From NCBI GenBank assembly GCA_947625755.1, contig CANQPJ010000005.1, positions 15,832-79,831 of the forward strand: 64,000 bases of DNA, in the 5' to 3' direction. Source of the DNA: an uncultured Lachnospiraceae bacterium (GTDB taxonomy: Bacteria > Bacillota > Clostridia > Lachnospirales > Lachnospiraceae). The stretch's first letter is position 1. Every line of letters begins with the position of its first letter. The translations under genes and the position numbers were made by a program. Under the pieces are notes generated by a model. It was not told where the DNA came from. It saw only the letters and a program-made list of their open reading frames with translations, and made no database searches. This document shows positions 18,594 through 20,611 of this stretch, piece by piece.

Positions 18594-18690
18594 CGACATT
18601 ACTCTCCTTGTCTTAATATAATTAATTATTTTACTACTATTACTTAATTTAATTAAGTTTTTTGGTCGTTATGTCAACCAGACACCTGCC

Positions 18691-18716
18691 AAAAGGGCGC
18701 ACTACGCCCTTTTTTA
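18691..18716 (-). promoter_or_regulatory. GC-rich hairpin in the rpoB 5' leader (attenuator-like)
   Basis: Minus strand AAAAGGGCG-UAGUG-CGCCCUUUU just downstream of the rpoB promoter. Confidence 0.5.
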
Positions 18717-18731
18717 CGCATATCAAATTTA

Positions 18732-18760
18732 AATATACCATTAAAAAAAAAAGAAGTCAA
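18732..18760 (-). promoter_or_regulatory. SigmaA promoter of rpoBC
   Basis: TTGACT-17 nt (contains T10)-TATATT with TGn extension. Confidence 0.7.
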
Positions 18761-18808
18761 GCATTTTTGTAATCTTTTCCAACTTGCGAAAATCACAACA
18801 ACGCCGTT

Positions 18809-18898
18809 TCAAATTTTTATATACCTTTCATCAATCGGTATCATATCATTAAAATTTAAGACACCAGCTATTTTATCTTTATCAAATCTATGGCAAAT
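18809..18898 (-). pseudogene. Remnant of a ToxN/AbiQ-like (type III toxin-antitoxin) toxin gene
   Basis: Minus-strand frame reads ICHRFDKDKIAGVLNFNDMIPIDERYIKI*; GVLNFNDMIPI resembles the ToxN/AbiQ core G-x-(I/L)-N-(F/L)-x-x-M-I-P motif; overlapping frame reads AIDLIKIK; no start codon or 5' half. Confidence 0.5.
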
Positions 18899-19265
18899 TC
18901 ATGATGTGGGAAAATCAATTACATATATTTTTTACAATACAAGCCAGATATATATGTAAATTCTTGGTGAATTCATAATCAGGGAGAATGCATTACATAT
19001 ATGTTTTACAATACAAACCACATATATATGTAAATTCTTGGATAATTCATAATTGGGGAGAATCAATTACATATATTCTTTACAATACACTCTTGATATA
19101 TATGTAAATTCTTGGTGAATTCATAATCGGAAAGAATGCATTACATATATTCTTTACAATACACTCCAAATATATATGTAAATTTTTGGAAAATTCATAG
19201 CAAGTCAAAATATATTACATATCTATATCAAATTATAAAATGCTAATATATGTAAATTATAAATA
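18896..19265. repeat. Non-coding tandem array of 74-bp units (4 well-conserved plus 1 degenerate), each with an internal inverted repeat
   Basis: Units start at 18896, 18970, 19044, 19118, 19192; units 3 vs 4 match 63/74 and units 2 vs 4 match 64/74; arms TTACATATAT-N21-ATATATGTAA. Confidence 0.95.
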
Positions 19266-19381
19266 TTGCAAGAAAACAAAGCTTACAAAAGACGATTCAG
19301 AAAATGAAAGGTGTAATTAATTTTAGAACTTGCACTAAAATCAACAATATATGTTCTCTTCCCTTATTTACCGTAAAACAA

Positions 19382-19422
19382 AAGAATACCCGCATCAGTG
19401 CAAGCACAATGCGGGTATTCTT
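19382..19422 (-). terminator. rplL terminator
   Basis: aagaatacccgcat-N13-atgcgggtattctt, followed by UUUUGUUUU on the minus strand. Confidence 0.8.
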
Positions 19423-19455
19423 CTATTATACATACAGCTTATTGCCATCATGTAA

Positions 19456-19821
19456 TTATTTAAGAGTAACTGTTGCTCCAACATCTTCTAACTGTTTCTT
19501 AAGAGCTTCTGCTTCCTCTTTAGAAAGACCTTCTTTAACAACCTTAGGAGCTCCGTCAACTACTTCTTTAGCTTCTTTCAGTCCTAAACCTGTTGCATCC
19601 TTAACAGCCTTGATAACCTTAACCTTCTGGTCACCTACTTCTGTTAACTCAACATCAAATTCAGTCTTTTCTTCTGTTGCTGCACCTTCTGCACCACCTG
19701 CTGCAACTACAACACCTGCTGCTGCGGATACACCAAATTCTTCTTCACATGCCTTTACAAGGTCATTTAATTCTAATACTGATAATCCTTTGATTACCTC
19801 AATGATTTCTTCTGTTGTCAT
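19456..19821 (-). CDS. rplL: 50S ribosomal protein L7/L12
   Basis: [41 protein letters not shown]; start ATG 19821 after SD GGAGG. Confidence 0.98.
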
Positions 19822-20391: not shown

Positions 20392-20474
20392 GAATGGTTT
20401 ACCTCCTTTTTAGATTCAGGTTTGCAACCTCATGCGCTTATAACCTTCCAAAGCACTTATACTACTTTGAAAAA

Positions 20475-20590
20475 GAAAAGCCTCTCTGCCGAAACAGAGA
20501 GGCATAAATCGTCATAAAAAAACGTTTACAACTTCATTCCTCGGCAGGCACTTGCGTTTACTCCTTTCGGAACCTGCTGTCTTCGGCATT
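20475..20590 (-). promoter_or_regulatory. L10 leader (ribosomal protein autoregulatory RNA)
   Basis: Minus strand GCCGAAGACAGCAGG...CCUGCCGAGG followed by a terminator-like hairpin (GCCUCUCUG..CAGAGAGGC-UUUU) upstream of rplJ. Confidence 0.75.
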
Positions 20591-20611
20591 TGGTTAGAAA
20601 CCACTTTGTGC

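Follow-up and report, generated by a model that had tools for sequence, protein, structure and literature searches.

Type III toxin-antitoxin cassettes of the ToxIN family, together with AbiQ, are the closest described systems to the toxin fragment presented here; they include those of B. thuringiensis (4ATO), P. atrosepticum (2XD0, 2XDB and 2XDD) and E. coli (7D8O), and AbiQ itself (4GLK). Published repeats of the toxIN family are 31-62 nt long and occur in 1.9-5.6 copies (PMC3401426, Table 2), and a terminator between the repeats and the toxin gene is a criterion of Blower et al. 2012 (PMC3401426). The fragment shares the GVLNFNxMIP core with these systems, as well as the C-terminal motif LKRRCCDFxKLE, and scores above the Pfam ToxN_toxin cut-off. 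In contrast to them, it is frameshifted and has no start codon, ToxI array, terminator or promoter, and the repeat that adjoins it has a 74-nt unit that is unrelated to ToxI and outside the 31-62 nt range.

Two kinds of dispersed repeat are the relevant comparison for the array itself. The pneumococcal BOX element (boxA, boxB repeated n times, boxC) and the staphylococcal STAR element are modular dispersed intergenic repeats of Firmicutes. The repeat family of the window would resemble them in being non-coding, intergenic and multi-copy, and in having variable tandem modules between conserved end modules, with a copy number that depends on the strain. It is not known to have sequence similarity to BOX or STAR, and differs in its 74-bp unit, in which a variable 20-nt spacer separates two invariant 10-bp inverted half-sites, and in its host, a gut Eubacterium and its relatives. 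Like MITEs, a 1.13-kb element of the same family in another genome (B88_13, see below) is free of ORFs, bounded by terminal inverted repeats and multi-copy, whereas the copy in the window has no terminal inverted repeats.

The window, by which we mean the whole 64-kb stretch of DNA that was analysed, derives from rabbit-gut metagenomes and from an uncultured Lachnospiraceae labelled 'Eubacterium sp.'. Its minus strand carries the conserved cluster rpmG-secE-nusG-rplK-rplA, then an L10 leader, then rplJ-rplL-rpoB. The features that frame the locus are the following:

20465-20604, in the minus-strand cluster: L10 leader (Rfam match)
19456-19821, minus strand: rplL, encoding ribosomal protein L7/L12, upstream of the spacer (ORF list)
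19373-19431, minus strand: hairpin followed by a T-run, the likely rplL terminator (inverted repeat and terminator-like site)
18732-18760, minus strand: rpoB promoter-like site of sigma-70 type (TTGACT, 17 nt, TG-n-TATATT), orthologous to the promoter of the nearest relative, L001
14763-18599, minus strand: rpoB, with its ATG at 18599 (ORF list and relatives)

The exact 121-aa rplL product is also encoded on conspecific contigs, with a match to Pfam Ribosomal_L12. Between the rplL stop (19456) and the rpoB ATG (18599) lies an 856-nt spacer, which contains both the toxin relic and the array. Read along the minus strand, this spacer consists of the hairpin with its T-run, about 100 nt of unique-looking sequence, the array, the ToxN-like frames (18898-18744), the promoter, a GC hairpin and a ribosome-binding site, followed by rpoB. 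The nearest relative in the genome collection, L001 (91% in the RpoB N-terminus), has a spacer of 290 nt with the orthologous rpoB promoter and with neither relic nor array. Because both are missing there, relic and array are inserted DNA, and by the same comparison the rpoB promoter-like site is the downstream edge of the insertion. Among the 80 relatives compared, the relic was confined to conspecific contigs.

The toxin relic consists of the following pieces:

18901-18809, minus strand: ToxN-like frame ICHRFDKDKIAGVLNFNDMIPIDERYIKI, read from stop to stop
18815-18886, minus strand: toxN relic segment A, corresponding to residues 76-99 of the intact L133 ToxN and including the GVLNFNxMIP core
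18765-18827, minus strand: toxN relic segment B, corresponding to residues ~151-169 of intact ToxN (LKRRCCDFRKLEKI), in a frame that differs from that of segment A

On the minus strand, the 74-nt array runs directly into a frame that reads DKIAGVLNFNDMIPIDERYIKI up to a stop, with the motif G-V-L-N-F-N-D-M-I-P-I at exactly 18865-18833. The original prediction had described this junction, the position of the motif and an overlapping frame reading AIDLIKIK, and had cautioned that no start codon or terminator separates array and fragment. All of these observations were reproduced: neither a start codon nor a terminator was found between the two, and the AIDLIKIK reading is present and carries no signal. 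The suggestion that the fragment is ToxN/AbiQ-like was likewise borne out, by the Pfam search proposed at the time, by a second collinear fragment and by a control over the whole window.

For the 29-aa fragment of segment A, the sole Pfam match was ToxN_toxin (E 0.0015, profile positions 71-92 of 159) and the sole PADLOC match was AbiQ (E 0.013); tblastn gave 62% identity over 24 aa. At the DNA level, the uncultured Eubacterium MAG L133 has a toxN gene to which blastn aligned 74 nt of the relic with 80% identity (E 1e-12); a further 80% match over 59 nt was to the 3' end of the L168 toxN. The nucleotide homology to toxN begins at 18884. By scanning the remaining stop-to-stop fragments of the spacer, we were able to locate the second fragment, KVYKNLKRRCCDFRKLEKITKML (18827-18744), which is collinear with the first and in another frame; it matches ToxN_toxin positions 140-157 (E 0.017), the C-terminus of ToxN. 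When segments A and B were joined, the score on Pfam ToxN_toxin (PF13958) rose to 31.1 bits (E 3.3e-7), the cut-off being 25. The best PDB match of the relic was B. thuringiensis ToxN (4ATO), in two collinear segments (residues 76-96 and 148-164).

As a control against selection by eye, an HMM was built from 66 full-length ToxN proteins of gut Clostridia and run against all 3716 six-frame fragments of the 64-kb window. It matched segment B (E 8.7e-7) and segment A (E 3.3e-6) and nothing else, the next best fragment having an E of 1.8. On this sequence evidence, the fragment is the genuine remnant of a toxin gene of the ToxN/AbiQ family, and a type III toxIN cassette was therefore formerly present in the rplL-rpoB spacer. 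A word-indexed protein database search with the 45-aa relic gave no candidate, and nothing relevant was found when the relic was compared with plasmids by tblastn or the spacer with plasmids and phages by blastn. Two candidates for the ToxN N-terminus were rejected. The frames of the array itself had no Pfam or custom HMM match, and tblastn pointed to a possible remnant at 19422-19282, upstream of the array (E 0.2-0.8, with YIVD and PFI..IV.CK as short matches), which was discarded because the profile HMM gave no score there and the segment behaves as part of the repeat.

The relic retains residues ~75-101 and 153-167 of the 172-aa L133 ToxN, that is, about 45 of ~172 codons. Relative to this protein, about 72 N-terminal codons are gone from the 5' end, and an in-frame deletion has removed 51 internal codons between ...RYAKTL and KRRCCDF. 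The window has in addition lost one base between 18814 and 18813, which places segments A and B in different frames; the conspecific contigs L083 and L086 keep this base and read through both segments in a single frame, from stop to stop, beginning ICHRFDKDKIAGVLNFNDMMPIDERYEKTLKRRCCDFRKLEKITKML. The junction of array and relic is identical in all conspecific contigs, which come from other samples. Some differences between strains fall inside the conserved MIP core, where L081 has L in place of P and L086 has M in place of I; neutral decay of a pseudogene is expected to give such changes.

The locus is thus a toxIN remnant and not a working member of the family. An intact toxin ORF (~160-220 aa, with a start codon) is missing, as are short repeats and the layout of a cassette. 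A rho-independent terminator between repeats and toxin gene is missing as well: no terminator-like site is present, and the array abuts the relic directly. As such, it offers a clear example of toxIN decay, with 5' truncation, in-frame deletion and frameshift documented across strains.

The features of the array, given without strand, are:

18901-19196: four 74-nt units, each with the 10-bp inverted half-sites TTACATATAT / ATATATGTAA, 21 nt apart
19197-19270: diverged terminal unit, plus strand ATTACATATCTAT..GCTAATATATGTAAAT; this type of unit also ends arrays at other loci
18884-18900: 17-nt partial unit, forming the junction of the array with the toxN relic, whose homology starts at 18884
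19271-19365: 95-nt segment flanked by ACATATA, present or absent among conspecific strains

Tandem Repeats Finder reported a 74-nt period with 4.1 copies and 84% matches at 18896-19199. Followed along the minus strand, the whole array extends over 18884-19270 and comprises, in register, four good units (19196-18901), the diverged unit (19270-19197) and the 17-nt partial unit. Each unit has the invariant half-site ATTACATATAT, about 20 variable nt and the invariant half-site ATATATGTAAA; the half-site pattern was matched four times in the array, against an expectation of zero. An alignment of 40 units gave the invariant sequences ATTACATAT(A)T and (AT)ATATGTAAA, a variable spacer of 19-21 nt and a semi-conserved linker. 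The window array also has a 148-nt super-period, and its copy number ranges from 4 to 6 units among strains. All of its frames are interrupted by stop codons. On the minus strand the array showed no sigma-70-like promoter, and Rfam had nothing in it at either gathering or permissive thresholds. Public RNA runs gave no match to the stretch. The distinctive last unit is common to the window and five other loci.

As far as about 19348, where the contigs diverge, the 95-nt segment behaves like a right-hand module of the dispersed repeat. Bounded by its ACATATA direct repeats, the segment is shared by the window with L084, L085, L087 and L089; L081, L082, L083, L086 and L088 lack it.

The original prediction took the array for the antitoxin of a decayed type III-like system, with a 74-nt hairpin-type unit that intact copies elsewhere would establish as a new subfamily. 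The array does adjoin a ToxN relic and lies 5' of it on the minus strand, and the ToxN homology is real. For comparison with intact loci, a degenerate DNA pattern based on the two motifs of the relic was used to collect toxN genes, which gave 82 loci, nearly all from gut Clostridia; ToxN genes without these motifs fall outside the sample. The 700 nt upstream of each of the 82 genes was scanned, about 10 loci ending early at the end of a contig or block. The tandem arrays detected there all repeat every 34-52 nt (mostly 34-36), with 1.9-3.9 copies, while about 10 of the 82 loci with full upstream sequence had no array at the threshold used. Where the 5' end of toxN is intact, a gap of a few tens of bases separates the array from the start codon.

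The closest intact relatives of the relic all have repeats of 34-36 nt. L133, whose ToxN matches 4ATO with an E of 5e-16, has the textbook layout of a promoter, 35 nt x 3.0 repeats (100% identical copies), a terminator hairpin, a ribosome-binding site and toxN. The search for an intact ToxN gene preceded by the 74-bp unit, which had been put forward as a check, returned none among the loci collected. The closest intact homologues have ordinary repeats of 34-52 nt in 2-4 copies followed by a terminator, and never the 74-nt unit, which is the outcome that the original prediction had named as refuting it. The 74-nt period of the window is also longer than the short repeats of toxIN (31-62 nt), and the unit has no similarity to any ToxI array or cassette part. 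We also considered that 74 nt might represent two diverged 37-nt ToxI units, and rejected this: autocorrelation appeared only at lags 74 and 148, and the similarity between the two halves did not exceed that of shuffles.

Several properties of the array itself speak against an antitoxin. The predicted RNA folds of the units are weak and differ from unit to unit (z about -1), and Rfam has no match for the array. In the unit alignment, arm positions just beyond the 8-bp core are not compensated, so sequence-specific half-sites fit better than an RNA stem. Between array and relic, 72 codons of the toxin are missing along with terminator and start codon, and by the polarity of the repeat family the terminal unit stands at the array end far from toxN. 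Furthermore, 20 or more loci have the 74-nt unit but no ToxN. Since the closest intact ToxN homologues lack the 74-nt unit and the unit is dispersed over many ToxN-free loci, the array is of independent origin. We regard it as exceedingly improbable that the array was the antitoxin of a new type III subfamily whose units are long hairpins, and that this locus is a decayed member of it. Of the original prediction, the decayed toxIN gene thus stands, and the array as its antitoxin, and with it the new subfamily, does not. The tempting lead of a new long-unit class of type III antitoxin is thereby removed, and the published range of toxIN repeats stands. The reading that we consider very probable is that of a dead toxN pseudogene abutted by an unrelated dispersed 74-nt repeat.

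The distribution of this repeat was followed with two scans of the genome collection, one with a pattern of two successive units and one with a pattern of a single unit. The two-unit pattern was found at 9 loci, 8 of them in uncultured Eubacterium or Eubacteriaceae MAGs, and four of these loci are separate contigs of MGBC106873, the MAG that also carries L133; one 74-nt array of this MAG lies 100 kb from its toxIN locus. The one-unit pattern was found at 28 loci, including 21 in four Eubacterium/Eubacteriaceae genomes and 2 in other Eubacteriales/Eubacteriaceae MAGs. Counting both scans, the four genomes have 2-9 repeat loci each. All these loci contain 2-4 palindromes spaced 73-76 bp apart, and in blastn the window array is 71-80% identical to them (E down to 4e-17). 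The neighbouring genes differ at every repeat locus examined, the orientation relative to them is not constant, and no ToxN was found near the array at any of the 20 or more loci in related Eubacterium genomes. The genome collection gave no match to the exact 43-nt unit core; the species of the window is therefore not among the representative genomes.

The source metagenome, a rabbit-gut sample holding the window and sequenced in four DNA runs, gave the same picture. The unique flanks had a word depth of about 8x, the bins of the array 100-250x (15-30 fold over the flanks) and the right module 20-50x. Each run had more than 60 contigs on the stretch, from which many different flanking sequences branch off. 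Matches to the array pattern in metagenome contigs were mostly unrelated AT-rich repeats, and viral contigs gave no match to it.

A larger form of the repeat was identified in Eubacteriaceae bacterium B88_13_EV_BP, as a 1.13-kb non-coding repeat at L194:5155-6281, L196:6691-7817 and L202:5869-7059. This element has the 74-bp palindrome array at its centre and long internal inverted repeats, and is present in at least 6 copies with 82-95% identity, with no ORF >50 aa (L194). Terminal inverted repeats of about 22 bp (AAATTYCGGTTTGTMGRGG) were found in L194, L196 and L202, and are absent from the window copy and several other loci. The window holds the array core with a short right-hand module, and has neither the terminal inverted repeats nor the outer 900 bp of the B88_13 element; its copy is either a fragment of this element or another form of it. 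At gathering thresholds, Rfam matched only two tRNA genes, both in L202, in the array-bearing loci L173-L180 and L194-L212.

The family thus has no coding capacity, the 1.13-kb element having no ORF >50 aa and the window array being closed by stops, and many copies per genome at unrelated intergenic sites. The array is probably a modular dispersed intergenic repeat or a fragment of a MITE. A literature search on the palindrome sequence found nothing, and the dispersed repeat family with its 74-bp module appears to be undescribed so far, though of a known kind. Such a family in rodent and rabbit gut Eubacterium, with its phased palindromic module, breaks metagenome assemblies and could serve as a strain marker.

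An origin in place, as a private minisatellite that arose by tandem duplication at the scar of the toxIN deletion, would account for the 4-6 units among strains, for the 148-nt super-period and for the partial unit in which the array ends exactly at the relic. It would not explain why unrelated loci of other genomes share the half-sites, the 74-bp phase and the type of terminal unit, nor the high multiplicity of the array in the same metagenome; amplification accounts for the extra copies but not for the origin. We therefore judge an origin of this kind to be very improbable.

For the preferred reading of a pseudogene next to a dispersed repeat, the following history can be proposed. A canonical toxIN cassette once lay between the rplL terminator and the rpoB promoter, and has decayed to a toxN pseudogene of 45 codons. 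The promoter, the ToxI repeats, the terminator and ~72 N-terminal codons (~0.5 kb) were lost, 51 internal codons were removed by an in-frame deletion, and the window lineage added the 1-nt frameshift. The 74-nt array belongs to a family of non-coding repeats, lineage-specific and dispersed, whose tandem-module core it copies; in at least one genome this family is MITE-like. Most likely it arrived by insertion or recombination, and replaced or deleted the 5' part of the cassette, then or later. The number of units would then have drifted by slippage or unequal recombination, to give the 4-6 units seen among strains. This history builds on the observed toxN homology and lesions, on the independent occurrence of the array at multiple loci and on its variation in copy number. 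As to the order of events, the repeat may have inserted into toxIN, or the two may first have been neighbours that a later deletion joined; all conspecific contigs carry the array.

The half-sites are phased at whole turns of the helix, with 31 bp within a unit (about three turns) and 74 bp between units (seven turns). Because of this phasing and the invariance of the half-sites, their sequence suggests recognition sites for a protein, a transposase or another DNA-binding protein, rather than RNA structure. A co-opted array could regulate rpoB in one of two ways, by binding protein as a phased platform upstream of the rpoB promoter or by forming structure within a transcript that reads through from rplL to rpoB; a dispersed origin would not conflict with such a role. 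In its favour, the distance from the array to the conserved -35 element of rpoB is 125-500 bp, with the array upstream, the half-sites are phased at whole turns, and the array has been kept in all conspecific contigs. The arrays at L177 and L178 likewise face the 5' end of a neighbouring gene, and unrelated tandem arrays occur upstream of rpoB in other Clostridia, for example in L042. On the other hand, orientation and position relative to neighbouring genes are inconsistent, several arrays lying between convergent genes; the copy number drifts, and the 95-nt flank is dispensable among strains. Regulation of rpoB by the array therefore seems improbable to us. A wider proposal is unlikely too, with some small chance of being right: the 74-bp modules (ATTACATATAT / ATATATGTAAA) would form a phased platform for a DNA-binding protein that modulates rpoB expression, and, as a separate point, type III cassettes may have landed repeatedly in the rplL-rpoB spacer of this clade, which has a toxIN relic here and an intact tenpIN in L019 (see below). 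If the platform exists, an array copy expanded upstream of the rpoB promoter would modulate the expression of the RNA polymerase beta subunit.

With regard to the spacer, a complete tenpIN type III toxin-antitoxin cassette was found in a relative, uncultured Eubacterium sp. Reindeer_2_mag_110 (L019:1330-2056). It comprises a promoter, 42 nt x 2.2 repeats (1454-1544), a terminator hairpin and a 153-aa toxin of the TenpIN family (NF047358, E 1.7e-41). This cassette occupies the same rplL-rpoB spacer in the same orientation as the toxN relic, but it belongs to a different toxin family, is intact and has no 74-nt array. Together with the toxIN relic of the window, it means that this spacer has been used by two different type III families among related gut Clostridia.

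Other repeats were observed upstream of rpoB in further genomes. In Bacillota bacterium OH_SBlB_196, a 65-nt x 5.0 array with a 130-nt super-period lies just upstream of the rpoB promoter (L042:2435-2775). Its units have two hairpins each, and a terminator-like hairpin followed by a T-run closes the last one. Between this array and rpoB there is no toxin ORF, and the sequence of the array is unrelated to that of the 74-nt array. A 37-nt x 2.4 repeat was found in uncultured Lachnospiraceae MGBC114200 (L035:2629-2716), in a rplL-rpoB spacer of 456 nt with no ORF >=70 aa; this may be a ToxI-like array that stands as an orphan, or a repeat that arose by chance. L060 has a 41-nt x 2.5 repeat in its rplL-rpoB spacer (L060:1840-1942).

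Among the loci L002-L080 with rplL within the 3 kb fetched upstream of rpoB, the rplL-rpoB spacer measured 169 nt to about 2.5 kb; at about 30 other loci of this set no rplL was found within that distance. The long spacers contain unrelated genes or long repeats, such as the 51-nt x 15 repeat of L071, and the rplL-rpoB junction is a frequent insertion site. Finally, a hairpin (AAAAAGGGCGTAGTGCGCCCTTTT, 18691-18715 of the window, minus strand) was noted in the rpoB leader, between the rpoB promoter and the ribosome-binding site. It has no match in Rfam, L001 carries a similar segment (GCGCCCTTTTTGCGG), and the hairpin may be a leader or attenuator structure of rpoB.
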